DNA from: an uncultured Gammaproteobacteria bacterium
GTDB lineage: Bacteria; Patescibacteriota; Patescibacteriia; Patescibacteriales; GWC2-42-12
Direction: 5' to 3'
NCBI GenBank assembly: GCA_964431805.1
Contig: CAYSKV010000005.1
Span: forward strand, 3,435 to 67,434
DNA length: 64,000 nucleotides
Part shown: piece after piece, positions 4,327 through 59,205 of the stretch
Layout: each line of letters opens with the position of its first letter
Numbering within the stretch: position 1 is the stretch's first letter
The notes under the pieces: generated by a model
The model's database searches: none
Told to the model about the DNA's origin: nothing
The model's input: the letters and a program-made list of their open reading frames with translations, nothing else
Made by a program: the position numbers and the translations under genes

Positions 4327-4534
4327 TTGACAAAACGCTTAATTTTTGCTAAAATAACATTAGATAATACAAAATTATATTATCTAAAAACAAAAACAAA
4401 AAACATGACTAAAAATAACGTCAATTTGGCTAAAAATAGCTCAAATTGGTTTAAAATATTAGAAAAAAGCAATGGACAGGAGTTTATCTAATTTAAACTC
4501 TTTTATGTCCATTGCTTTTTTAATAAACAAAAAT
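4327..4534 (+). promoter_or_regulatory. Promoter (TTGACA 4327-4332, 17 nt, TAAAAT 4350-4355) plus ~175-nt structured leader ending in a terminator-like hairpin (4469-4515, then T6). Copy A of a duplicated cassette.
   Basis: Consensus -35/-10 hexamers with 17-nt spacing. Hairpins: TTAGATAATA/TATTATCTAA, and GCAATGGACA...TGTCCATTGC with an inner GAGTTTA/TAAACTC stem followed by TTTTTT. About 88% identical to the minus-strand copy at 59002-59205. Confidence 0.6.
4405..4491 (+). CDS. Candidate leader peptide (uORF, 28 aa) MTKNNVNLAKNSSNWFKILEKSNGQEFI
   Basis: An ATG-initiated frame is conserved in leader copy B (MIKNNANLAKNSINWFKILEK...). The stop lies inside the loop of the terminator-like hairpin. 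No SD, but most genes here lack one. Confidence 0.3.
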   Translation: MTKNNVNLAKNSSNWFKILEKSNGQEFI

Positions 4535-7516
4535 ATGAAAATAACAAAAAACAAAAACAAAAAAACAAAAAAAATAATCTTTCCTCTCTTAATTTTCGTT
4601 TTAATTTTTAACTTAGCCCCTTCGGTTGTTCGAGCAACTACGGCCTATGACAGTATTAATGGTATTTATACTGATGATTTTGCTAATAACTCGGGCGTGC
4701 CGACTAGAAGTTATATTAATGTTAATACCGCTACCGGCGCACTTCAATTAACTAATGCCAGCAATCAAAGCAGTTTCGCCACTCCTTATAAAGACAACGG
4801 TTATGCTATAACTGGCTCAATTGCCCCTGTATTACTAGCTAAATGGGGCACGATTTCTCTTGATGCAAATATACCAGAAGGAACTACTCTTAAAATTCAA
4901 GTAATGGATGATAGCAATACTCTATTTTCTGATACAAACTTGCCTGGCAATTCTTCTGGCGTAGAAGCAACTAACATAGATATTAGTAATGTTGATATTT
5001 TACATTGCGCCCCGGGTCTTAATTGTAATAAGCCGTATGTTATAAAAATTAAATTTTTAATGACTACTACTGATACTGCTGTCACGCCGACGATTAATAA
5101 TTTAACTGTTACCTGGGCTACAACTCAAGGTGATTTGTCCGCCGCTGAACCAGACACTACTTCAGCTTGGCCATCATATAACGTTAATCAGCAAAGTACC
5201 AACCATGTACCTTTTGCTAATTCTCAAATTTACCCAACATTTAAATGGGCTAGCGCCCAATTTGAAAGAGATTATGGCGTTGAGGGAATATATATTCTAG
5301 ATGATAAAATTTTTGGTTATACCGGCTATTACGGCGGATATATGTTTGCTCAAGACAAAGATACCGGAGAAGACCTTTGGAGGCTTCCATATAATAGATG
5401 CAGCGGACCAAGAGGATCTATCAGCAGTAACGGAACTTTTTATGGCACTGACATAGGTTGTGATGGTTTTTATGTAATAGACACTAACACGGGCCAATTA
5501 AAATGGCTATATAATTTTTATGGTGGACATGGTTCTGGGCAGACGATTATAGGAAGTGATGGAACTATTTATACTGATAGAAATTCTGGGGGTAATGGTA
5601 CCGATATTTTTTACGCTTTTAATCCTGATGGTTCAATAAAATGGACAAAAAATATTATTCTTTCAGAAACTGTTGGAGATAGGTTAAGTATTAATTCATT
5701 ATTTATGAGCTCAGATGATACTATCTATTTGCCTTTTTCCACTTATGATTCTAGTTACAACAGCACAAACCATGGCAAACTTGTTGCAATTAATTCCGAA
5801 GATGGTTCAACAAAATGGACATATAATACTGGTGATTTAGGATGGCGTGCAATAATAGATAATAATGGAACTATTTATGTTACTTCTGATTATCAATATA
5901 ATGCTACATTAGGAGATTATGTAGCTACAGAAAAAAAGATTTTTGCTATTAACCCGGACGGAACTTTAAAATGGGAAAGAACTACAGGAGAAAATACAAA
6001 ACAAGGTTATAATAGTTTTTCATTAAGAAATGATGGGATACTGCTAGCGCTTAGGGGCCAAAATGAGTGGAACGAACCAAACAAATTAGAAGCGATTAAT
6101 ACTAGTGACGGATCTTTGCTTTGGTCAGAAGAAACTACTGCTTATGATATCTCTTTTTCTGATAATAACAACGGATTTGTCTATGCGGATGGCGTTGCCG
6201 GCGCCAATGCAAATGATTATTATACAAGAGTTAATTATTTTGACTCAAACGCTAATTTAAAATGGAGAGTTGCTTACCCATATAATACTGATCCAAACAA
6301 TTCCGGTGGTTATGTTTATTATAGTTTAGGAAGTATTGTCCAAGATGAACGCGGTTGGATTTATGGTTCGCTTGGTAAAGGTGCTTATGACAATGACACC
6401 GATTGGAATGCTTTACCTGAAGAAATGTTCGCTAAATCTTTTGCTTTAGCTCCTTGGACTTTAAGTAATCAAACCCTGCCATATGATCATCAACAGCAAA
6501 GAGATACTTTAAATTTTAGCGTTGTTTCTTCGATGCTTGAAACTAACCCTGTTTTCTCCGGCGACAACAAAGTGCAAGTAATAATGGATAATGGCGATAA
6601 AATAGCTCTTAGTTATAGCGGTTTAGATGCTAGCGGCAACAGCCTTTGGACAGGTTCCTATACTATACCGGCCGATGCAGTCGCTGGCACGCACACTTAT
6701 ACTATTGAAGCCGCGCAAAGTTATCTGCAAACAGATATTACTACTCATTTTGCTTCTGCTCCAACAGAATCAAACAACACCGGTATTACTGCTACAGGCA
6801 CTTACTATATTTATGAGCGTGGCGGCACTGTAATATTGTCTCCTACTACTCTCGCGCCAACTACACCCAACAATACTGCAAATATAGCTACGCCTAACGC
6901 TAACAGCGAACCAGCGTCTAATTCAAGTCAATTAAACTCAACCGAATCACATACTGAACAAAATCAAACGCAAAACCAAAGCCAAGCCACAACAATTTTT
7001 AATCATAATCAATTTGTTCCTTTAAGCGACAATGAAAAAAAATTATATTCAACTATTATAGAAAGTGATGAAAATTTAGATGATCAAATAAAATATGCTA
7101 TTGCTTATTTTATTAATTTTGGCACTCCTAATACAAAACACTTAGGCGCGGGAGAAAGAGCTGGCGTGATAAAATCTTATAAATCCGCTTTTAAAAAATT
7201 GCCGAGATCAACGGCAGACTGGGAAGATATAATAAAAATCGCTAACGGTATTGCTCCTATTGAAAGAAGTCAAAACGCTGAAGATCAAGCTAAAAAATTC
7301 TTTAAAACAATTTATCAAAGAGAGGCTGACATTACTAACGTTTATGACAATAACGCTATCATAATAATGGCTTACGGTTTACGCCCAACCGCTCGTGATT
7401 TAAATAGCGAGCTATCTTCTATAAAAACTTTTAAAGTAATATTCGGATTTATGCCGCAATCAACTGAACAATGGAATATGATAAAAGCTATTGCTTATAG
7501 CGGAGTGAGTAAATAA
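4535..7516 (+). CDS. Giant secreted protein: signal peptide, PQQ/BamB-like beta-propeller repeats, Thr/Asn/Gln-rich linker, conserved C-terminal domain
   Basis: The ORF-track frame 4472-7516 was trimmed to the ATG at 4535 (MKITKNKNKKTKKIIFPLLIFVLIF...VRA signal peptide) because the upstream part is the leader hairpin. Repeated ..G..KW.. blades: TGQLKWLYNF, DGSIKWTKNI, DGSTKWTYNT, DGTLKWERTT, DGSLLWSEET. The C-terminal ~165 aa are homologous to the C-terminus of 55666-59001. Confidence 0.85.
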   Translation: MKITKNKNKKTKKIIFPLLIFVLIFNLAPSVVRATTAYDSINGIYTDDFANNSGVPTRSYINVNTATGALQLTNASNQSSFATPYKDNGYAITGSIAPVLLAKWGTISLDANIPEGTTLKIQVMDDSNTLFSDTNLPGNSSGVEATNIDISNVDILHCAPGLNCNKPYVIKIKFLMTTTDTAVTPTINNLTVTWATTQGDLSAAEPDTTSAWPSYNVNQQSTNHVPFANSQIYPTFKWASAQFERDYGVEGIYILDDKIFGYTGYYGGYMFAQDKDTGEDLWRLPYNRCSGPRGSISSNGTFYGTDIGCDGFYVIDTNTGQLKWLYNFYGGHGSGQTIIGSDGTIYTDRNSGGNGTDIFYAFNPDGSIKWTKNIILSETVGDRLSINSLFMSSDDTIYLPFSTYDSSYNSTNHGKLVAINSEDGSTKWTYNTGDLGWRAIIDNNGTIYVTSDYQYNATLGDYVATEKKIFAINPDGTLKWERTTGENTKQGYNSFSLRNDGILLALRGQNEWNEPNKLEAINTSDGSLLWSEETTAYDISFSDNNNGFVYADGVAGANANDYYTRVNYFDSNANLKWRVAYPYNTDPNNSGGYVYYSLGSIVQDERGWIYGSLGKGAYDNDTDWNALPEEMFAKSFALAPWTLSNQTLPYDHQQQRDTLNFSVVSSMLETNPVFSGDNKVQVIMDNGDKIALSYSGLDASGNSLWTGSYTIPADAVAGTHTYTIEAAQSYLQTDITTHFASAPTESNNTGITATGTYYIYERGGTVILSPTTLAPTTPNNTANIATPNANSEPASNSSQLNSTESHTEQNQTQNQSQATTIFNHNQFVPLSDNEKKLYSTIIESDENLDDQIKYAIAYFINFGTPNTKHLGAGERAGVIKSYKSAFKKLPRSTADWEDIIKIANGIAPIERSQNAEDQAKKFFKTIYQREADITNVYDNNAIIIMAYGLRPTARDLNSELSSIKTFKVIFGFMPQSTEQWNMIKAIAYSGVSK

Positions 7517-33580: not shown

Positions 33581-34891
33581 TTAATAACACCCCAGCTGGT
33601 TAATAGTAGCGCTGCAAGTCTGAGCTGTATCATGACAAGAACCCCAAGAATAAGTGCGATTGTTATATATACATGTCTCTTTAGCTATATTAGCCCATGC
33701 GTGGCTAGCAGTCGTGCATGATTGGGCTGGACAATTCGTAGCATTATTTGTAGTTCCGGTACAAGTCCTTACAACAGTGGCTGAATAATTATAGTAATTT
33801 GACCATCCGCTCGGGCAGCTACTAATTGATAATCTACAATAACTATTTGCGCCATCATTCATAACAGTTCCGCCCAAGCTTATACAATTAGAAGGCGTAT
33901 GTATGCCTTGGTAAAGAAGCTCTGTGGGAATAAAATAACAACAGTATGCTTCTGTTTTAATTTCCTCCCAATCACTATTATCAGTGCTATTACCACCTGA
34001 ACTACAAAGAGTTGTCTTAATACTAGCTACATAACTGCCATCCGGGCAACTAATAGATGATGTGCCTGGGCTGGCATAAGCACCTCTAACGCAACCTCCA
34101 GAATACCACGTACATCCATTACTTTGTTTTATATCCGTGGCGCCACCAATATACGCTGTTGTTTGTAAAGTCCCATCAGGAAATTTAATACCATCTACGC
34201 CGGCTGTGCCACCGATTGTTAATTTTGCGCTTGGAGTGGTTATCCCAATGCCGACGTTACCTTGATTATCTATACGCATTCGTTCAACAATAGTATTTGT
34301 GCCATCAGGGCTAGTAAAGAACGAGATACGGCCTGGAGTATCTGTTGTGTCCCCGGCAGTATCCCATTCGCCATCAGCTGCAATATATATCATTGCTGCC
34401 GGAAAAAAGGGAAAAAGGCCAGCTGCAACACTATATCCATATCCATTTAAAGACATGAGCCCATCATTATTTTGTACAACGGCTGGACTTGAAACGCTTC
34501 CGCGAGCGCGATAACCCTTGAAAGAAGGTCCATAACCAGGAAAAACAGAATTATAAGAATAATCACCAATTTCAGAATAACTGCCGTCGCTAACTACTGA
34601 TAGTTGATTTGCCGGGTTCGTCGTCCCAATCCCAACATTCCCTTTTTCCACAATCAAACCTAAAGGAGAAATGCCGTTAGTATTAATCCATAAAGCTCCT
34701 AATTTAGATTGTAAAAGTGGGCCAACGTTAAGCGGTTCGTCGCAACCTGGATCACCGGTATTACAAGTCGCCGGGTTAGCTAAAGGCGCGATCCAGGCGG
34801 CCAGGAGAGATTGAAATGAAATAGATAGGCCTAGAGTTAAAATAACAGCCGTAATTAGAAGAAGAGAGATTTTAAAATGCTTCTGGTACAT
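33581..34891 (-). CDS. Secreted surface protein with tail-fibre-like GNVGIG repeats and a Cys-rich C-terminal domain
   Basis: Trimmed to the ATG at 34889-34891 (MYQKHFKISLLLITAVILTL signal/anchor). Repeats GNVGIGTTNPANQLSVV and GNVGIGITTPSAKLTIGG. About 24 Cys in the last ~190 aa. Confidence 0.75.
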   Translation of the reverse strand: MYQKHFKISLLLITAVILTLGLSISFQSLLAAWIAPLANPATCNTGDPGCDEPLNVGPLLQSKLGALWINTNGISPLGLIVEKGNVGIGTTNPANQLSVVSDGSYSEIGDYSYNSVFPGYGPSFKGYRARGSVSSPAVVQNNDGLMSLNGYGYSVAAGLFPFFPAAMIYIAADGEWDTAGDTTDTPGRISFFTSPDGTNTIVERMRIDNQGNVGIGITTPSAKLTIGGTAGVDGIKFPDGTLQTTAYIGGATDIKQSNGCTWYSGGCVRGAYASPGTSSISCPDGSYVASIKTTLCSSGGNSTDNSDWEEIKTEAYCCYFIPTELLYQGIHTPSNCISLGGTVMNDGANSYCRLSISSCPSGWSNYYNYSATVVRTCTGTTNNATNCPAQSCTTASHAWANIAKETCIYNNRTYSWGSCHDTAQTCSATINQLGCY

Positions 34892-51813: not shown

Positions 51814-51847
51814 AAAATTTATATTTAAATTAATAATAAAATAATCT

Positions 51848-51875
51848 TGTCATTGCGGCCCCCGAGCCGCAATCC
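51848..51875 (+). repeat. TGTCATT-hairpin-AATCC repeat unit
   Basis: TGTC-ATTGCGGC-ccccga-GCCGCAAT-CC. Confidence 0.6.
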
Positions 51876-51944
51876 ATTTCCATAATTAAGCTTCGCCAGA
51901 ATTCCCTACTTTTGTTTTTAAAATAAAATTTTTTCATATTTTTT

Positions 51945-51971
51945 TGTCATTCCGGGCTCGACCCGGAATCC
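51945..51971 (+). repeat. TGTCATT-hairpin-AATCC repeat unit
   Basis: TGTC-ATTCCGGG-ctcga-CCCGGAAT-CC. Confidence 0.6.
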
Positions 51972-52056
51972 ACTACCTTTATTATATAAATTTATTAATT
52001 TTAGAATTGGCGGGAAACGAAACAAAATATAATTTCGTTTCCCGCGTTTTGCCTTT

Positions 52057-52257
52057 TTAGTCTTGCCAAAGGCAGTCGGCACGGCGGATGCCTACCACTG
52101 GCATTTTCCAGATACTATCAGCTTTTTTTAATTCAGCTAGCAGGCTCTTTTCTTGTTCGCGAGTTATTAATCCATCATTTTTAGCCGTCCTTATGTCCTT
52201 TGATGTTAAATCTTCAACCAGTATTTTTACCTTGTCCGCAATTTCCGATAATTTCAT
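52057..52257 (-). CDS. 66-aa hypothetical protein, second gene behind the T-box leader
   Basis: AAGGAGAataaaagATG, where the SD overlaps the stop of the upstream ORF. MKLSEIADKVKILVEDLTSKD... is helical and charged. Confidence 0.55.
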   Translation of the reverse strand: MKLSEIADKVKILVEDLTSKDIRTAKNDGLITREQEKSLLAELKKADSIWKMPVVGIRRADCLWQD

Positions 52258-52269
52258 CTTTTATTCTCC

Positions 52270-52464
52270 TTATCTGTGATATGTTGAGTTAAAACCACTT
52301 AAACTAGAACCACAACCGCGCGGACATTTTGCTTCTGCGCCAAATCCTACGCCTATAGTTTTTGCGCTACCGCAAAAACCGCATTTGTCATTGCTATTAC
52401 CAAAAATTAAAACATCATCATCTTTTATTTCTTTTTTATCATCCTTCTTTAAATCAGCTGACAT
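52270..52464 (-). CDS. 64-aa four-Cys mini-protein, first gene behind the T-box leader
   Basis: Trimmed to the ATG at 52462-52464, preceded by GGAGGG (52477-52472). MSADLKKDDKKEIKDDDVLIFGNSNDKCGFCGSAKTIGVGFGAEAKCPRGCGSSLSGFNSTYHR (CxxC ... CxxxC). Confidence 0.55.
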   Translation of the reverse strand: MSADLKKDDKKEIKDDDVLIFGNSNDKCGFCGSAKTIGVGFGAEAKCPRGCGSSLSGFNSTYHR

Positions 52465-52509
52465 AATTTTTCCCTCCATATTTTTTTTATAAAGATCGTT
52501 TTGGAAAAC

Positions 52510-52846
52510 AAAAAAGCTTCCCATCTCTTAAACATAGCTAAACTATGCTTAAGGGACGGAAAGCCTTGCTTTTCGTGTTGCCACCCTTATTCCGAAAACA
52601 AAAAAACGCTTTTGAGCGTTCTATTTTCGCTCATCGACTCATGCTTCGTTTTTAACGAAAGACATCGATTATCCTATGATTACGGAGGAAACCGAGTTAA
52701 CACTAACGCATTAACCACCCTTTAAGTTCAGGCCCAATCCCAGCGTATCGCCGGGACCCGAACGGGTTTTACAATTTGTTTACCCCTGTTAAATCCGCGA
52801 AGCGGAAATTTGCCAAAGGCCAATTTATTTAACGGGGTGAAGTTCT
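52510..52846 (-). promoter_or_regulatory. T-box-type leader (antiterminator 52588-52551, terminator 52564-52516 plus U-tract 52515-52510, Stem III-like hairpin 52620-52605)
   Basis: AAGGG-UGGCAAC-ACGAAAAGC-aag-GCUUUCCGU-CCCUU matches the T-box antiterminator architecture (A1 helix, 7-nt UGGN bulge, A2 helix). Its 3' half re-pairs into a 21-bp terminator with one mismatch, followed by UUUUUUGUUUU. Promoter TTGACA(52880-52875)-16-TATACT(52858-52853). Confidence 0.65.
52782..52844. repeat. Structured element closed by CCCC(T)GTTAAAT/ATTTAACGGGG, copy 1
   Basis: Plus strand CCCCTGTTAAAT-[CCGCgaaGCGG]-[AAATTTGCCaaaGGCCAATTT]-ATTTAACGGGG. The 20-mer TTATTTAACGGGGTGAAGTT (52825-52844) recurs exactly, inverted, at 54913-54932. 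Confidence 0.6.
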
Positions 52847-52868
52847 AAAATCAGTATAGCAAAAATAA

Positions 52869-53888: not shown

Positions 53889-54003
53889 AAAATTTATCTT
53901 ATCTAATAACCCTTAAAAAAACAAGCTGACTTTACAAAATTCTCTTAAAAGTGCAAAATATAAGGGACTTACAAAATAATTAATAACCGGCTATAATATA
54001 ATT

Positions 54004-54408
54004 ATGTATAAAAAAGTCATAATTCCTACAATTTTATTCATCGCTGTTTTTGCTTTTTCATTTTTTGCGCTTTCAGGAGAAGGTAGTAAAAATAAACCAA
54101 CAACAAACGAGCCAACCGGCCAACAAAATCAGGCGGTAAGCCAGATTATTCTTTTTTATGGCGACGGCTGCCCGCATTGTAAAATCGTAGAAGAATATAT
54201 TGAAAAAAATAAAACCAAAGAAAAACTTTCTTTCGCTCAAAAAGAAGTTTATTATAATAAAACTAACGCTAACGAGCTTGTAGAAAAAGCAAAAATTTGC
54301 GGTTTACCGACCGATTCAATCGGCGTGCCATTTCTGTTTGATGAAAAAAAATGTTATATCGGCGATCAAGATATTATAAATTTTTTCAAACAAAAAACTA
54401 ATGAATAA
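54004..54408 (+). CDS. Membrane-anchored thioredoxin-fold protein with CPHC active site
   Basis: 134 aa. N-terminal TM, then LFYGDGCPHCKIVEEYI. A second Cys pair occurs later (C...C). Confidence 0.7.
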   Translation: MYKKVIIPTILFIAVFAFSFFALSGEGSKNKPTTNEPTGQQNQAVSQIILFYGDGCPHCKIVEEYIEKNKTKEKLSFAQKEVYYNKTNANELVEKAKICGLPTDSIGVPFLFDEKKCYIGDQDIINFFKQKTNE

Positions 54409-54928
54409 CAAAAAATTATCAATTTATATTTTTTCTTTTTTAGCAATTAGTTTTCTCTTTGCTAAAAAAGCTTTAGCGGTTTGTCCCATTTGTACGATCG
54501 CGGTTGGCGCTGGCCTTGGTCTTTCCCGCTGGTTAGGAATTAACGATACCATAACCGGCCTATGGATTGGCGGACTTATCGTTTCCATGATTGTCTGGAC
54601 CGAAAGTTGGCTTGATAAAAAAAATATTCGCTTTAAAGGCAGAATTTTTGTGGACATACTAGTCTATTATCTTTTTACTATTATTCCACTTTATTATACT
54701 GGCATCATCGGCAATCCATTAAATACTTTATGCGCTTGTGGAATAGATAAATTACTTTTTGGCATTGTTGCTGGCAGCTCGGCTTTCTGGTTCGGAGCTA
54801 GTTGGTATTTTTTTCTTAAAGAAAAAAATAATGGACGCGCTCACTTTCCTTTTCAAAAAGTTGTTATGCCAATTACGCCGATTATTATTTTAAGTATAAT
54901 TTTTTATTTTTTAACTTCACCCCGTTAA
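54401..54928 (+). CDS. Novel 5-6 TM membrane protein with CPIC and CAC motifs
   Basis: 175 aa. The start overlaps the upstream stop by 8 nt (ATGAATAA). AVCPICTIAVGAGLG lies in a TM and NTLCACGIDKL at a TM boundary. Confidence 0.6.
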   Translation: MNNKKLSIYIFSFLAISFLFAKKALAVCPICTIAVGAGLGLSRWLGINDTITGLWIGGLIVSMIVWTESWLDKKNIRFKGRIFVDILVYYLFTIIPLYYTGIIGNPLNTLCACGIDKLLFGIVAGSSAFWFGASWYFFLKEKNNGRAHFPFQKVVMPITPIIILSIIFYFLTSPR

Positions 54929-55051
54929 ATAATTTGTTTAAACAAATTAAGGCTTGGATAATTGGCGAGATAATTATATTATTAATAAATTGAATATTAT
55001 TTAAAAAATTTTATATAATCAAAATAAAAAATCAAGCCTTATTTAACGGGG
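54913..55051. repeat. Structured element closed by CCCCGTTAAAT/ATTTAACGGGG, copy 2
   Basis: CCCCGTTAAAT-[AATTTGTTTAAACAAATT palindrome]-AAGGCTTG ... CAAGCCTT-ATTTAACGGGG. The left arm overlaps the last codons of the membrane-protein gene. Confidence 0.6.
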
Positions 55052-55068
55052 CAAGTAACTTTAAAAAT

Positions 55069-55605
55069 ATGGATAACCAAAATCCGATAAAAAATATTAA
55101 TGAATTTATTCAAAAAGTAGATACGATGAAAAAAGAAAATAAATTAGACCTTTCTTCTGATCAAGATTTATCCATCGCCATTATGAATTTAGTTAGTATT
55201 GAAGAACATTTCTTTTTTACTGGCGGCAAATTAGAAAAAACAGGCTACTACGATATGATAAAAGATGTTAGGGAAATGAGAAAAGAACTGATGTTAAAAA
55301 TAGTGAAAGAACCGGAAGGTGAAGTCTGGTGCATTTCAAAGCATTTACTCGCCGCTTCTATGCGCTTAATGGAAGTTGGGACAAAACAACTTGGCATAGG
55401 CAGAAAAGATGAAGCCTACAATCTTTTTGATAAAGCCTTTAATCTTTATTCTCTATTTTGGGGGCTTAATATGAAACTTTTAAATGTCGGCGATATAAAA
55501 AAAATTGATGATGGAGCGGTAAATAAACATGACACTGAAAAAAAAGGTTTAATGGGAAAACTTGGTGAACTGGTAAAAAAAGCGATTGATTGCTGTATTG
55601 AATAA
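55069..55605 (+). CDS. Hypothetical protein ending in CCIE
   Basis: 178 aa, helical. No recognised motif. Followed by the bidirectional terminator ACTCTGG-tttaaa-GCCAGAGT. Confidence 0.5.
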   Translation: MDNQNPIKNINEFIQKVDTMKKENKLDLSSDQDLSIAIMNLVSIEEHFFFTGGKLEKTGYYDMIKDVREMRKELMLKIVKEPEGEVWCISKHLLAASMRLMEVGTKQLGIGRKDEAYNLFDKAFNLYSLFWGLNMKLLNVGDIKKIDDGAVNKHDTEKKGLMGKLGELVKKAIDCCIE

Positions 55606-55665
55606 TTTTTAAAAATTATATAAAAAAACTCTGGTTTAAAGCCAGAGTTTTTATTTTTATTATCT

Positions 55666-58600
55666 TTATCTTTGAAGACCGCTATAAGCTATACCTCTAA
55701 TTATATTCCAATCTGTAGCATTAACTGGGCTATGTTCATAGATCCATTTGAAAGTTGTGATAGCGGTTTGTTCGCTGATTAGGTTTCTGGGTCTGGGCAT
55801 TAAACCATAGGCCATAACCATAATAGTGTTTTGGTCTAGATTGTTAGACATAACAGGGTTGCGGCCATAGACTCGGGAGAATTCTATTTTAGCCTGTTCC
55901 TCAATATTAGAATTTCTCTCAATTGGCCATCTACCATTGGCTATTTTCAATAAATCAGACCATTCAGCTTCGCTATTAGGCAGTCTAGAGTAGGCTTTGT
56001 AGTAGGAGTTAATGACTGCGGCTCGTTCGCCTGAACCTAATCTCAGGGTTGATTTAGTACCATAGACTATGAAATTATTGATAGTTGATCTCTCAATATC
56101 AGTTATAGTTTTATCTAAATTTAGAATAGTCTGATATTTAATTAATCCTTGTTGTTCTTTGGCTAAATCAGCCTGAATAGCTAGATGAGTTAATAATTGA
56201 TTTTTATCATTAGTAGCTAATATTTGAGCTTCGGTTAGAATCTGTTCTAATAGTTCATCATTGTTATTATTAGCTGAATTATTATTGTTGTTATTATTGT
56301 TTTGATTATTACCTGGGTTGTTGTTTCCTGGATTGCCGTTATTGTTGTTCCCATTATTTCCTGGGTTGTTGTTATTGGGTGGAGGCAAAGGGTTACCACC
56401 AGAAACAATCATAATACTGTCTGAATAAACATCTGTTATATTGCCTAGAGCGTCCTTAAATTTAACATAAACTGTTTTAGTGCCAAAACCGCTGTCTAAC
56501 GTCCAGGTTATGGCCGAGGTATATGTTCGCCAATCGCAATCAGTAAACTCTTGATTATTACAAACCATCATCTGACTAACAGCGCCGGCATCATCAGTGG
56601 CTTGAAAATTTAAAATTACATCATGAGTAATTATTTTTTCTTCTCCGGAGTTAATAGTAATTTGACCGGTTAAAACCGGAAGGCCGAGACGGGTTAAAAA
56701 AGTAACTTCAGTATTATTATAAGAAGTAAAAAATCCGCCAACTAATATTTTATTATCGTTTTGAAAAAAGACGGAATATACTCCGGCATAAAAAAGCCCT
56801 GCTAAACCAGTTCCAGAATTAAATGTTTCATCTAAGCTGCCGTCGGAGTTAAGTCGAACTATATTATTTACTGCAGTGCCATTATAAGAAGTAAAATATC
56901 CGCCAATTAATATTTTACCATCATCCTGAAGTGACATTGTTTGTATGTATGGATAATCGTTTCCCAATCCTGTGCCAGAACTAAATGTTTCATCTAAGCT
57001 GCCATCGGAGTTAAGTCGAACTATGTAGTTTGCCATAACTCCATTATAAGAATTAAAACCTCCACCCACTAATATTTTACCATCATTTTGAAGGGCTATT
57101 GAACATACCGCCGGCCAATCTCCGCCGAAACCGGTACCTTGATTAAAAGTTGTATCCATACTTCCATCAGTATTTAGTCTAACTATATTGTTTACTTCGG
57201 TACCATTATAAATAGTAAAATATCCACCAACCAATATTTTATCGTCATTTTGTATTGTAACAAAATAAACTCTTTCCCAGTCTCCGTTAAAACCCTCCTC
57301 CATATTAAAACTTGCATCTATACTGCCATCAGAATTAAGTCTAGCTATATTATTAGCCAAATTTCCATTATAAGAACTAAAATCTCCACCAACTAATATT
57401 TTCCCGTCACTTTGCAAGGCTATAGTATTTATATAATTATCAAATCCTAATCCGCCAGAATTAAAAGTAGTATCTAAACTACCATCAGAGTTAAGTCTAA
57501 CTATATTATTCGCCGTAGTGCCGTTATAAGAAGTAAACCATCCACCAACTAATATTTTACCATCACTTTGAAGGGCTATAGTATTCACACAATCATCAAA
57601 ACCTAACCCGCCAAAATTAAATGTTTCATCCAAACTACCATCAACATTGAGTCGAGCTATATAATTTACCGCAGTATCATTATAAGAAGTAAAACCTCCA
57701 CCCACTAATATTTTCCCATCGTCTTGAGTAGTTACAATACTAATATAACCATTAAAACCTTTAGCGCCTGGATTAAAGCTTGTATCTAAACTACCATCTG
57801 AGTTAAGTCTTTCCAAATAATCTCCGCCTATTATTATTTTATTATCAGATTGAATAGATATATCTCTAACCCACATCCAAGAATAAATTTTAGAGGGAGA
57901 GGTAAATGTATTATCTAAAGTTCCATTACTATTTAATCGGGCTATTTTTTTTATAGTAGTACCATTATAAGAATCAAAATCTCCTCCTATTAATATTTTA
58001 CCGTCTGATTGAATAGCTACACTAGCAGTCCTAATAGTAAAACCTGTTCCTGCGTTAGCATGAAAGTCCGTATCTAAACTTCCATCTGTATTAATTCTAG
58101 CTATATATCCAATACTTGTTCCTCTGTATGTGTCGATTCTCATGCCAACGATAATTATTTTCCCATCAGATTGTACTGCTATATCTAAAATTTCTGGATA
58201 ATATGAACCCGACAACCCAGTACCGGGGTCAAAAGTTGTATCTAAGGTTCCATCAGCATTTAATCTGGCTATTTCGTTTCTGGTTACTCCGTTAAATGTA
58301 GTAAAAAGTCCCCCAATAACTATTTTATTATCGTCCTGAATAAATATTGATTCTGGACCCCACCAATTAAAACCTGTGCCAATATTAAAACTTGTATCTA
58401 AAGTACCATTTGTATTTAATCTAGCTATTCTGCTTACTGCTGTACCATTATAAGAACTAAATTGCCCGATAACTACTATTTTCCCATCACTTTGTAGGCC
58501 CATTCCCATGACATTACTATTAAACCCAACACCAATATTAAAATCTGTATCTAAACTACCATCAGTATTTAATCTAACTATGTGATTTACTGTTGTGCCA

Positions 58601-59001
58601 TTATAAGAAGTAAAACCTCCTCCAACTAATATTTTACCATCACTTTGGAGGACAATTGTTTCTACTTTATAATCACCATTGTCATTAAAGCCTGTACCGA
58701 TATTAAAATCTGTATCTAAACTACCTTCAGTATTTAATCTGGCTATACAATTAGCCGGTGTGCCATTATAAGAATTAAATTCACCGCCAATTAAAATTTT
58801 TCCATCACCTTGAATAACTGTTGTATTTACTCTATAATCAACTCCTTTAAATTCACCATTTATAAAATCCGAGTCTAGTCGCCCATCAGAATATATATAA
58901 CTTTGAGCTTTGGTTTGGTTGGCGAAGGAGGATAGAAATAATAAGGTTAAAATAAATAAGATTATGCCTTTGGGCATTTTTTTGTTTTTTGTTATTTTCA
59001 T
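55666..59001 (-). CDS. Giant secreted protein: signal peptide, ~13 delta-60-type beta-propeller repeats, Ig-like region, poly-Asn/Gly linker, conserved C-terminal domain
   Basis: Trimmed to the ATG at 58999-59001 (MKITKNKKMPKGIILFILTLLFLSSFA). Repeat unit ARLN.DGSLDT.FN.G.GF......IA.QSDGKILVGG.F.SYNG. Linker PPNNNNPGNNGNNNNGNPGNNNPGNNQNNNNNNNN. The C-terminal ~190 aa are homologous to the end of 4535-7516. Confidence 0.85.
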   Translation of the reverse strand: MKITKNKKMPKGIILFILTLLFLSSFANQTKAQSYIYSDGRLDSDFINGEFKGVDYRVNTTVIQGDGKILIGGEFNSYNGTPANCIARLNTEGSLDTDFNIGTGFNDNGDYKVETIVLQSDGKILVGGGFTSYNGTTVNHIVRLNTDGSLDTDFNIGVGFNSNVMGMGLQSDGKIVVIGQFSSYNGTAVSRIARLNTNGTLDTSFNIGTGFNWWGPESIFIQDDNKIVIGGLFTTFNGVTRNEIARLNADGTLDTTFDPGTGLSGSYYPEILDIAVQSDGKIIIVGMRIDTYRGTSIGYIARINTDGSLDTDFHANAGTGFTIRTASVAIQSDGKILIGGDFDSYNGTTIKKIARLNSNGTLDNTFTSPSKIYSWMWVRDISIQSDNKIIIGGDYLERLNSDGSLDTSFNPGAKGFNGYISIVTTQDDGKILVGGGFTSYNDTAVNYIARLNVDGSLDETFNFGGLGFDDCVNTIALQSDGKILVGGWFTSYNGTTANNIVRLNSDGSLDTTFNSGGLGFDNYINTIALQSDGKILVGGDFSSYNGNLANNIARLNSDGSIDASFNMEEGFNGDWERVYFVTIQNDDKILVGGYFTIYNGTEVNNIVRLNTDGSMDTTFNQGTGFGGDWPAVCSIALQNDGKILVGGGFNSYNGVMANYIVRLNSDGSLDETFSSGTGLGNDYPYIQTMSLQDDGKILIGGYFTSYNGTAVNNIVRLNSDGSLDETFNSGTGLAGLFYAGVYSVFFQNDNKILVGGFFTSYNNTEVTFLTRLGLPVLTGQITINSGEEKIITHDVILNFQATDDAGAVSQMMVCNNQEFTDCDWRTYTSAITWTLDSGFGTKTVYVKFKDALGNITDVYSDSIMIVSGGNPLPPPNNNNPGNNGNNNNGNPGNNNPGNNQNNNNNNNNSANNNNDELLEQILTEAQILATNDKNQLLTHLAIQADLAKEQQGLIKYQTILNLDKTITDIERSTINNFIVYGTKSTLRLGSGERAAVINSYYKAYSRLPNSEAEWSDLLKIANGRWPIERNSNIEEQAKIEFSRVYGRNPVMSNNLDQNTIMVMAYGLMPRPRNLISEQTAITTFKWIYEHSPVNATDWNIIRGIAYSGLQR

Positions 59002-59205
59002 ATTTTTGTTTATTAAAAAAGCAATGGACAAAGAGTTTAAACTGATTAAACTATTATCCATTGCTTTTTTTCTAATATTTTAAACCAATTTATGCTATTT
59101 TTAGCTAAATTGGCGTTATTTTTTATCATGTTTTGTTTTTATTTTTTGATAATATGATTTTGTATTATCTAATATAATTTTAACAAAAATTTTGTATTTT
59201 GTCAA
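59002..59205 (-). promoter_or_regulatory. Promoter (TTGACA 59205-59200, 17 nt, TAAAAT 59182-59177) plus structured leader and terminator-like hairpin (59064-59021, then T6). Copy B of the duplicated cassette.
   Basis: Hand alignment to 4327-4534 gives ~88% identity with 3 small indels. The hairpin GCAATGGATA...TGTCCATTGC keeps pairing through a C-to-U change, so C-G becomes U.G. Confidence 0.6.
59046..59129 (-). CDS. Candidate leader peptide (uORF, 27 aa) MIKNNANLAKNSINWFKILEKKQWIIV
   Basis: Same frame and the same first 21 codons (3 substitutions) as uORF A. A 1-nt indel changes the tail. The stop again lies inside the terminator-like hairpin. Confidence 0.3.
   Translation of the reverse strand: MIKNNANLAKNSINWFKILEKKQWIIV

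Follow-up and report, generated by a model that had tools for sequence, protein, structure and literature searches.

A conserved three-gene unit of Patescibacteria as a candidate transmembrane thiol-disulfide relay

Three adjacent genes from a Patescibacteria genome may together encode a three-part transmembrane thiol-disulfide relay. The first gene encodes an exported thioredoxin-like protein (TRX), the second a polytopic membrane protein (MEM) and the third a Cys/His protein (THIRD). The proposed relay would be specific to Patescibacteria, resembling DsbB/VKOR/MauE or CcdA in function while being unrelated to them in family. We felt that this reading has about an even chance of being correct. 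The genes were examined in a 64,000-nt stretch of genomic DNA, here called the window, and in related loci. An Rfam scan of the window identified tRNAs and nothing else.

The pathways of disulfide bond formation are known from few membrane enzyme families. Patescibacteria are a huge and mostly uncultured lineage of episymbionts that rely on their pili and surface proteins, and quinone-based respiration is thought to be lacking in most of them. Pfam, NCBIfam and PDB contain neither MEM nor THIRD, two of the three proteins. The module is a testable candidate for extracytoplasmic thiol handling in this lineage, and it provides a working hypothesis for two large families of 'hypothetical' proteins comprising at least 1700 and at least 8000 sequences. 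The features of the unit are listed in Table 1.

Table 1. Features of the TRX-MEM-THIRD unit, in window positions
Feature	Position	Strand	Basis or remark
Promoter-like site CTTACA-18-TATAAT, 5' of TRX	53968..53997	+	Consensus scan, 10/12 matches; pattern match only
TRX, 134 aa, exported, membrane-tethered, thioredoxin/glutaredoxin-like	54004..54408	+	ORF
TRX CPHC active-site codons, aa 56-59	54169..54180	+	Read from sequence
MEM, 175-aa polytopic membrane protein, unannotated Patescibacteria family	54401..54928	+	ORF
MEM signal-peptide-like segment, aa 1-26, A-L-A end before V27-C28	54401..54478	+	Putative cleavage
MEM CPIC, aa 28-31, outer face, family-wide CPxC	54482..54493	+	Conservation; topology inferred
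MEM CAC, aa 111-113, clade-specific CxC, outer loop between helices 81-99 and 117-142	54731..54739	+	
MEM F149-P-F-Q-K-V154, most conserved cytoplasmic loop, putative THIRD docking site	54845..54862	+	Conservation; loop charge
MEM-THIRD spacer, 140 nt	54929..55068	+	Promoter-like site inside at 54990-55019
THIRD, 178-aa cytoplasmic Cys/His protein, four-helix core	55069..55605	+	ORF
Terminator-like hairpin and T-run 3' of THIRD, 13-bp stem	55624..55652	+	Pattern match only

When the ORFs are read from the sequence, the TRX stop and the MEM start share exactly 8 nt (ATGAATAA, 54401-54408), as the sequence-only reading had reported. Related loci were retrieved using a 19-sequence MEM alignment, which generated 82 loci; 80 of these represent distinct species' genomes. 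A TRX-like gene lies directly 5' of MEM in 61/82 loci, separated from it by a median of 1 nt (mostly -14 to +12). Such tight coupling of the TRX and MEM genes is not chance. THIRD is the most constant partner, being found directly 3' of MEM in 75/82 loci with 45-96% identity. MEM and THIRD occur without an adjacent TRX in ~20/82 loci, about a quarter. The MEM-to-THIRD gap has a median of 4 nt in the relatives, and the long spacer of the window is atypical.

TRX and MEM are also joined into a single protein in at least 13 family clusters. Among 31 representatives longer than 200 aa, at least 13 have the layout signal peptide, Trx domain with CxxC, TM helix and MEM. The N-terminal domain of the fusions aligns to the TRX of the window (E = 5e-18 and 1e-14), and THIRD again follows the fusion gene in both fusions whose neighbourhoods were examined. 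Five divergent THIRD genes were examined as well; three adjoin MEM and two adjoin an exported Trx-like gene. The two-gene pair proposed earlier is thus upheld by adjacency and by fusion, but the unit also includes THIRD. The Trx-MEM-THIRD module, in some cases fused, is present in at least 499 species genomes. The interval first drawn around the locus, 54004-54928, leaves out the third gene at 55069-55605.

TRX is composed of an N-terminal hydrophobic anchor, a low-complexity linker and an ~88-aa glutaredoxin-like domain with the motif C56-P-H-C59; the anchor and the CPHC tetrad noticed in the first reading are both confirmed. CPHC is present in 55/61 TRX orthologues directly 5' of MEM. In 46 orthologues the invariant columns are C56, P57, C59, E81, N88, C99, P109, C117 and G120, where C99 and C117 form an extra invariant Cys pair besides CPHC. 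The TRX family profile matches the PDB glutaredoxin 7c10, which also has CPHC, with E=5.8e-8. The match to Pfam Thioredoxin (E=5e-4) falls under the gathering score, and the match to YruB-Grx in NCBIfam is weak and below the cut-off. The CxxC, the cis-Pro P109 and the profile similarity to Trx-fold proteins indicate, at the level of sequence, that TRX is a member of the thioredoxin superfamily. It differs from glutaredoxin/NrdH-like proteins in being exported and tethered, in carrying the C99/C117 pair and in scoring below all curated cut-offs.

Members of the DsbA family are ~190 aa in length and have a helical insertion in the Trx fold. TRX was not classified as DsbA because its ~88-aa mature domain lacks this insertion; the DsbA matches in PDB were weak and covered the CPHC region only. 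Nor was it classified as ArsF (NF040494), which is absent from its NCBIfam matches at E<=1. A second Trx-like paralogue found in related loci does match NF040494, with 94.9 bits.

MEM has 1728 homologues in 479 clusters at 50% identity. All are designated 'hypothetical' and none contains a Pfam domain. Both Cys motifs described in the first reading, AVC28PIC31TIA and LC111AC113G, are present in the window, but only the former holds across the family. In an alignment of 150 family representatives, with ~142-144 residues per column, CPxC is conserved at ~98% (C28 140/143, P29 136/143, C31 141/144), and C28 and C31 are the sole Cys in 34/93 members. C111-A112 is a 2-aa insertion in ~9/142 representatives, and the C113 column is W/F/L elsewhere. 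The CxC, which is trailed by G-[ILM]-D-K, is limited to close relatives of the window, and CPxC is the only family-wide pair. CxC was found in 36/79 species loci. TRX lies 5' of MEM in 33/36 of these versus 27/43 loci without CxC, counts that are not phylogenetically independent.

The AlphaFold2 model of MEM has six helices (mean pLDDT 89.8), which fits the five to six TM helices counted previously. Charge counts suggest that only four of these are true TM helices; of the other two, one would be a cleavable signal peptide and one would not span the membrane. Positions -3 and -1 of the putative signal peptide are A in 50/93 and 78/93 members, respectively, and the h-region is ~15 aa. Judged by the loop charges of the MEM family, the KKNIxFKG and FPFQKV loops are cytoplasmic, whereas CPxC, GIDD and the loop with the CxC face outward. 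Loop 140-153 was assigned to the cytoplasm because it has a mean of 4.0 K+R. Given the layout of the fusions, CPxC and the Trx domain share the outer side of the membrane. This topology is built from charge counts and the logic of the fusions, and three arguments locate CPxC at the outer face: the signal peptide, the fusion layout and the positive-inside rule. The MEM alignment contains no conserved His, no conserved cytoplasm-facing Cys and nothing recognisable as a site for a quinone or cofactor. With one conserved Cys pair and no His or cofactor site, MEM has no visible electron route across the membrane.

Comparisons of sequence and of modelled fold show that MEM is not a DsbB, VKOR, CcdA/DsbD or MauE protein and place it in no known family. 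The MEM of the window had no family match in Pfam, NCBIfam or PDB. Searches of 93 MEM members against Pfam DsbB, VKOR, CcdA/DsbD, MauE and DoxX generated no match at E<=1, and the family profile generated 0 matches at E<=10 among all PDB sequences, VKOR entries included. Foldseek of the MEM model against PDB produced a best E of 1.1 with TM<=0.34, and no DsbB was among the 50 matches listed. Against the viral library BFVD the best match was a giant-virus VKOR model, which was non-significant (E=0.36, TM 0.23). MEM was assigned to no transporter family. That the first reading could not match its Cys pairs to DsbB, VKOR or CcdA/DsbD agrees with the results from Pfam, NCBIfam, hhalign and Foldseek. 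Literature searches found no description of the MEM or THIRD family.

The closest known systems share some features with the trio. As in DsbB-DsbA of E. coli and BdbC-BdbD, an exported CPHC Trx-fold protein is paired with a small helical membrane protein. In MEM as in DsbB, the CxxC immediately follows the first hydrophobic helix and faces outward, and in the window's clade only, a second Cys pair occupies the next outer loop. Unlike DsbB, MEM has an inferred topology that ends outside the cell, not inside; the trio has a conserved cytoplasmic partner; and TRX lacks the DsbA helical insert. DsbB itself is a four-TM bundle with an essential Cys pair in each periplasmic loop. DsbB (PF02600) was rejected since hhalign against E. 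coli DsbB gave a probability of 0.2%, the second Cys pair is not family-wide, and there is no similarity in sequence, profile or fold. VKOR and VKOR-Trx fusions (Synechococcus, Actinomyces MdbA/VKOR) resemble the trio in the occasional fusion of the membrane protein with its Trx-like client. VKOR (PF07884) was rejected because there was no Pfam or profile match and because the CxxC of MEM is N-terminal, whereas that of VKOR is at TM4 and is accompanied by a loop Cys pair. VKOR has been reported in many CPR genomes, and also next to MdbA-like oxidoreductases there (Meheust et al. 2019), so no 'missing pathway' is demonstrated for Patescibacteria.

A preprint reports that MauE, a four-TM protein with an outer-loop CXC, can replace DsbB, and a preprint survey finds that ~20% of bacterial species lack DsbB, VKOR and MauE. 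MauE, of the DoxX clan, shares with MEM the four-TM core and, in the window's clade, the outer-loop CxC. However, the CXC of MauE, in the loop between TM3 and TM4, is its sole Cys pair and is followed by a conserved Phe-Gly, while the conserved pair of MEM is CPxC. MauE/DoxX was rejected, as none of the 93 members matched and the CxC is clade-only and lacks the F-G. CcdA/DsbD and ArsG/ArsF resemble the trio in their cytoplasm-to-outside logic and Trx-like client, and their genes are often in the same locus. CcdA has one single Cys in TM1 and another in TM4, within an internal (inverted) repeat, in contrast to the adjacent outer-face CPxC pair of MEM. CcdA/DsbD (PF02683, PF13386) and ArsG (NF040495) were rejected for this reason and for want of a Pfam or NCBIfam match. 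Hhalign of the MEM family with an ArsG-like cluster from the same loci gave a probability of 3.6%, limited to an 'A-x-CP' motif. All comparisons with the PF03773 permease were negative.

THIRD produced no match in profile searches of Pfam, NCBIfam and PDB. It has at least 8000 homologues, none of them annotated, and is more widespread than MEM. The invariant columns are E45, E46, H47, E85, C88, H92 and the C-terminal C175-C176 (CCIE). The AlphaFold2 model has a four-helix core and moderate confidence (mean pLDDT 67.4). Ferritin-like sulerythrin/rubrerythrin proteins were the top Foldseek matches and were rejected at E>=0.19, TM<=0.31 and a model pLDDT of 67.

In the relay that we favour, TRX at the outer face would swap disulfides with exported proteins, for example Cys-rich surface proteins, through CPHC and cis-Pro109, as is typical of its family. 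MEM would then recycle TRX, a step to which synteny, fusion and topology point. On the outer side, its conserved CPxC would begin a short helix that does not span the membrane and packs against the four-TM bundle. In the window's clade the extra outer-loop CxC is probably a shuttle pair toward TRX, comparable to the second pair of DsbB or the CxC of MauE. Finally, the conserved cytoplasmic loops KKNIxFKG and FPFQKV may couple MEM to THIRD, whose Cys88/His and flexible C-terminal Cys-Cys could serve as a cytoplasmic electron sink or source.

The relay is favoured because of the TRX signature, the gene order, the fusions, the CPxC conservation, the loop charges and the adjacency of THIRD. It also gains from the MauE precedent for an unrelated replacement of DsbB and from an exported Cys-rich protein encoded in the window (ORF 33581-34891). 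This protein has 18 Cys in total, 16 of them in the last ~180 aa, and the ~24 Cys claimed earlier for its C-terminal ~190 aa were an overcount. The relay reading is weakened by the single conserved Cys pair in MEM, by the missing TRX beside about a quarter of MEM-THIRD pairs, by metal(loid)-rich neighbourhoods, by the mean pLDDT of the THIRD model and by the cytoplasmic protein partner, which to our knowledge is unprecedented in oxidising pathways.

As to direction, we lean slightly to oxidising because of the DsbA/MdbA-type CPHC, the extra invariant Cys pair in TRX and the separate CcdA-like pair beside the trio. In 16 loci this pair, an ArsF-family Trx-like gene and an ArsG-family (CcdA-like) gene, accompanies the trio, mostly immediately 5' of it; its presence speaks for the trio having a role that is not redundant. 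The same relay could run in the reducing direction, as in CcdA/DsbD, with THIRD as a thiol donor to MEM and TRX kept reduced for isomerisation or for protection of exported Cys. This version forms part of the chance given to the relay and is rather unlikely taken by itself. A reducing pathway would need a dedicated cytoplasmic Cys protein, and we know of none in the oxidising pathways of the DsbB and VKOR families. The fold of TRX is small and like that of Grx/NrdH, with no DsbA insert, and Patescibacteria are not known to have respiratory chains, so that no sink for the electrons of an oxidising pathway is evident. On the other hand, CPHC is the classic oxidase dipeptide, the extra Cys pair of TRX itself needs oxidation, the 16 loci already have a CcdA-like gene with its own Trx-like partner, and MEM lacks the two membrane-embedded single Cys that define CcdA.

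A broader proposal is that MEM and THIRD constitute a quinone-independent machine linking extracytoplasmic disulfide chemistry to a cytoplasmic, possibly metal-containing, Cys/His four-helix protein. It would be a fifth, structurally unrelated solution beside DsbB, VKOR, MauE and CcdA/DsbD, used by a large part of Patescibacteria. We consider this somewhat unlikely; if true, it would explain how the disulfides of pilins and surface proteins are formed or managed in organisms that have no respiratory quinones.

Metal(loid) genes share the locus of the trio in many relatives, often in the same gene string. They include an ArsR/SmtB regulator with CVC, an ArsE-family Trx_3 protein and a PF03773 permease with weak SaoE and SO_0444 Cu/Zn-efflux matches; further neighbours are the ArsF/ArsG-family genes, a P1B-ATPase, and transporters of the CDF and Znu-like ABC types. 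These genes suggest the main rival to the relay, a soft-metal(loid) hand-off in which TRX, the CPxC of MEM and THIRD would serve to take up, sense or detoxify a thiophilic ion, for example As(III), Cu(I), Zn or Cd, by handing it on at or through the membrane. Consistent with a hand-off are the invariant H47, C88, H92, C175 and C176 of THIRD, among which Cys88 and Cys-Cys could form a three-thiolate site like that of ArsR/ArsD, with two His in addition. In one case MEM has a Nitro_FeMo-Co domain as its fusion partner, and the CPxC with its adjacent invariant Asp-Asp recalls the intramembrane CPC/CPx motif of P1B-ATPases. Nevertheless, we judge the hand-off improbable. The trio of the window is without such neighbours, as a search of the window for ArsR, Trx_3, permease, ArsF, ArsG and P1B-ATPase homologues found none, and the dense gene strings of small Patescibacteria genomes make adjacency weaker evidence. 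TRX keeps its full redox signature of CPxC and invariant cis-Pro, and in glutaredoxins the Pro of CPxC works against the bridging of clusters or metals. THIRD and MEM are also too widespread and conserved for an accessory resistance trait.

A function of MEM-THIRD outside a thiol relay, such as envelope biogenesis or signalling, with a CPxC that TRX would merely help to fold and that would serve as structural disulfide or substrate site, would accord with the ~20/82 loci lacking an adjacent TRX, the wider spread of THIRD and the failure to identify a cofactor or electron path, but is quite improbable given the repeated Trx-MEM fusions, the exported Trx-like gene that adjoins THIRD even where MEM does not, and the retention of CxxC at 90-98% in both TRX and MEM.

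The sequence-only reading proposed a pair of genes, encoding TRX, an anchored Trx/Grx-like protein, and MEM, a helical membrane protein. The pair, its motifs and its overlap, which is exactly ATGAATAA, were all confirmed directly in the window sequence. The G+C content of the window is 35%, and its genes share 84–96% identity with their counterparts in metagenome-assembled Patescibacteria genomes, for example JBAZFW010000013.1. Records of related loci (L004, L010, L011, L015, L024, L027 and others) are often titled Gammaproteobacteria, Bdellovibrionales, Burkholderiaceae or Pacearchaeota. Since genes in these loci are 55–90% identical to Patescibacteria ones, mislabelling or mixed bins are the probable explanation.

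Features of the window, followed by two genes from related loci (L085, L090)
Feature	Location	Strand	Length	Description
TRX	54004-54408	+	134 aa	hydrophobic N-terminal segment, polar linker, short domain with C56-P-H-C59
MEM	54401-54928	+	175 aa	hydrophobic; A-V-C28-P-I-C31 and L-C111-A-C113-G
MEM-THIRD spacer	54929-55068		140 nt	between the MEM and THIRD genes
Promoter-like sequence	54990-55019			TTGAAT-18-TATAAT, inside the spacer
THIRD	55069-55605	+	178 aa	gene after MEM; no signal peptide
Cys-rich exported protein	33581-34891	-		18 Cys (even), 16 within the C-terminal ~180 aa
Gap	51814-52868		~1 kb	between TrpB-like gene and tsaD
Short Cys-rich ORF	52270-52524			within the gap
Repeat protein	4472-7516	+	1014 aa	very large, secreted; 'DGSLDTxFN' repeats
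Repeat protein	55666-59061	-	1131 aa	very large, secreted; 'DGSLDTxFN' repeats
Flavodoxin-like protein	L085:1385-2431		348 aa	membrane-anchored; flavodoxin-like N-terminus, 4Fe-4S ferredoxin-type Cys motifs, C-terminal TM helices
P0228, MEM homologue	L090:4001-4918			fused to a cytoplasmic N-terminal Nitro_FeMo-Co (PF02579) domain

One genome per GTDB species was scanned, and a MEM relative was found in at least 499 species. Neighborhoods were counted in 82 loci, the best 80 of these and two others. In 61/82 a TRX orthologue is found immediately 5' of MEM on the same strand (median gap 1 nt), and 55/61 of these orthologues contain CPHC. Of the 31 representatives of the family that exceed 200 aa, at least 13 are Trx-MEM fusions, whose N-terminal domains could be aligned with TRX of the window (E = 5e-18, 1e-14). 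Adjacency and fusion are two independent lines of evidence, and the link between TRX and MEM is real. The fusions run in the order signal peptide, Trx domain with CxxC (CPHC, CPYC, CQYC, CKYC, CIHC and others), conserved GKxNTE linker, one TM helix, basic stretch, MEM signal-like helix and CPxC. With this architecture, the CxxC of the Trx domain and the CPxC of MEM both come to lie on the outer side.

The pair had been presented as a two-gene unit, a view that missed a further component. THIRD, a cytoplasmic protein, is encoded next after MEM in 75/82 loci (identity 45–96%, median gap 4 nt). It was also found 3' of two fused Trx-MEM or domain-MEM genes, in the two neighborhoods looked up. MEM is 5' of divergent THIRD genes in 3/5 loci looked up (L085, L092, L094); the genes in L083 and L093 have no adjacent MEM and are followed by genes for an exported Trx-like CPYC protein and an exported Trx-like CIHC lipoprotein, respectively. 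THIRD is therefore consistently tied to the thiol module, and the three genes form a conserved unit in which TRX and MEM are repeatedly fused and each have a conserved CxxC. The 140-nt spacer of the window contrasts with a median of 4 nt in 72 related loci, and carries an 8-bp inverted repeat, AAGGCTTG...CAAGCCTT. It is shared with the closest relative (L003) and absent from L004, and so looks like a recent insertion, which may uncouple THIRD expression.

MEM and THIRD lie outside every described family, and no description of either was found in the literature searched. The 1728 detectable MEM homologues (479 clusters at 50% identity) are all unnamed and without a Pfam domain. Neither the window MEM nor 93 diverse relatives matched DsbB, VKOR, DsbD, MauE, DoxX or any consistent Pfam family, and a search of all PDB sequences with the family profile gave no hit at E≤10. 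Comparisons by hhalign rejected E. coli DsbB (probability 0.2%), the CcdA-like ArsG cluster (3.6%) and the PF03773 permease (0.4%). AlphaFold2 modelled MEM with confidence (mean pLDDT 89.8, pTM 0.78); Foldseek returned nothing significant for this model in PDB (best E = 1.1, TM≤0.34) or BFVD, where the top entry was a giant-virus VKOR model at noise level (E = 0.36, TM 0.23). With NCBIfam also negative, the earlier difficulty in placing MEM in DsbB, VKOR or CcdA/DsbD was borne out. For THIRD, at least 8000 homologues were found, none of them named, and Pfam, NCBIfam and PDB sequences gave no match. Its AlphaFold2 model (overall mean pLDDT 67.4) has a four-helix core with block means of roughly 75–91 and a C-terminal helix of low confidence; nothing significant was found by Foldseek, ferritin-like proteins topping the list at E≥0.19. 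Among 86 diverse members 39 columns are invariant, including E45, E46, H47, E83, E85, C88, H92 and the C-terminal C175-C176 (...DCCIE).

TRX alone gave sub-threshold matches to Pfam Thioredoxin (E = 5e-4) and the NCBIfam YruB-type glutaredoxin (E = 1e-5). A profile of 46 orthologues matched glutaredoxin structure 7c10, which also has CPHC (E = 5.8e-8), with DsbA entries next, weakly. The invariant positions C56, P57, C59, E81, N88, C99, P109, C117 and G120 include the redox CxxC, a cis-proline loop (G-V-P109) and a further pair of Cys. Since the ~88-aa domain is too small for the DsbA helical insert, TRX is a member of the Trx superfamily outside the DsbA family. It does not belong to the ArsF family either.

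Both Cys motifs attributed to MEM are present in the window, but only CPxC is kept family-wide. C28, P29 and C31 are ~98% conserved in 150 representatives; G38, G46, D48/D49, W55, G57, G125 and the loop F149-P-F-Q-K-V154 are conserved as well. About 9/142 sequences carry C111-A112 as an insertion of two residues; elsewhere W, F or L aligns to C113, and C28 and C31 are the only Cys in 34/93 aligned members. Because of this the CxC belongs to the window's clade and not to the family as a whole; in that clade, relatives of ≥70% identity have CACG, CFCG, CVCG or CSCG. TRX is upstream of 33/36 MEMs with CxC versus 27/43 without (Fisher p = 0.003, for loci that are not phylogenetically independent). 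One 245-aa homologue (P0001) has an internal tandem copy of residues ~48–118, and with it a second CFC loop; the duplication may be genuine or may stem from the assembly.

The MEM model has helices at 3–26, 29–44, 49–73, 81–99, 117–142 and 152–172. Residues 1–26 resemble a Sec signal peptide (KK, then a 15-residue h-region), with A at −3 in 50/93 and at −1 in 78/93 members; its cleavage and the exact place of helix 29–44 are predictions. Loops 72–81 and 140–153 are basic (mean K+R 3.8 and 4.0) and therefore assigned to the cytoplasm, while the acidic loop 44–50 is assigned to the outside; by parity, helix 29–44 would not span the membrane. From charge counts and the logic of the fusions, mature MEM would present an outer-face N-terminal CPxC helix on a four-TM bundle, with the CxC-bearing loop 100–117 likewise outside. 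In this topology the CxxC motifs of TRX and MEM would both be on the outer face, with the conserved loops FPFQKV and KKNIxFKG facing the cytoplasm, the compartment of THIRD.

A Trx-fold CxxC with cis-Pro carries out thiol-disulfide exchange, and DsbB and VKOR, small helical membrane proteins, recycle Trx-fold partners through a CxxC at the outer face. MauE recycles such partners with CxC (preprint). We give an even chance to a three-component thiol-disulfide relay. From family knowledge, TRX would perform exchange with its CxxC and cis-Pro, and the CPxC of MEM would recycle TRX in the manner of DsbB or VKOR. THIRD might be the cytoplasmic redox partner, with its flexible C-terminal Cys-Cys as a possible shuttle; in some thioredoxin reductases a C-terminal Cys-Cys tail works in this way. 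No electron route is visible across MEM, in which a single Cys pair is conserved and no His. The trio shares with known systems the logic of an exported Trx-fold protein served by a membrane partner; it differs in being built from two unrelated, undescribed families, and to our knowledge known systems of this kind have no cytoplasmic third component. For CPR bacteria, only MdbA-like oxidoreductases and VKOR were discussed by Meheust et al. (2019), and a 2026 preprint states that more disulfide pathways are still to be found.

We lean slightly toward an oxidising relay because of CPHC, G-V-cisPro, the extra TRX Cys pair, the exported proteins rich in Cys and the presence of a distinct CcdA-like pair next to the trio. 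The Cys-rich protein in the table, earlier credited with ~24 Cys, which was too high, is a plausible client of oxidative folding. Against these features, the trio has a cytoplasmic Cys protein of its own, TRX is Grx-like in size and no electron sink is obvious, which makes the reducing direction nearly as credible. The L085 flavodoxin-like gene, immediately 5' of a divergent MEM-THIRD pair, could in this single case encode a protein that donates or accepts electrons.

In many relatives the trio sits among an ArsR/SmtB regulator, an MTH895/ArsE-family Thioredoxin_3, a PF03773-type permease, a second Trx-like paralogue of the ArsF family (CWSC or CASC) and an ArsG-family CcdA-like membrane protein, sometimes with a P1B-ATPase, Znu-like ABC transporter or CDF transporter. 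The first five recur in that order before TRX-MEM-THIRD (e.g. L005, L014, L016, L019 and L020, among L003-L082), and the P0228 fusion has a PF03773-like fragment 5' and THIRD 3'. These ars/metal neighbors and the Cys3/His2 set of THIRD would suit soft-metal(loid) hand-off, which we consider unlikely given that TRX has a redox-type signature, that the families are as broad as housekeeping ones and that in the window itself no ArsR/SmtB, Thioredoxin_3, PF03773 permease, ArsF, ArsG or P1B-ATPase-type neighbor was found. The names ArsF and ArsG reportedly originate in one roxarsone study; the wide presence of both families in Patescibacteria points to a broader thiol-related role. A MEM-THIRD complex of unrelated function, with TRX merely a folding helper, is improbable in light of the recurrent Trx-MEM fusions.

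Elsewhere in the window, neither a long ORF nor an Rfam match was found in the gap between the TrpB-like gene and tsaD; the ORFs there are short and overlap, and one is rich in Cys. The two repeat proteins have a nearly identical N-terminus, MD(R/N)SL..LNS..SIAFLINKNMKITKNK, and appear to be paralogues with a conserved leader.
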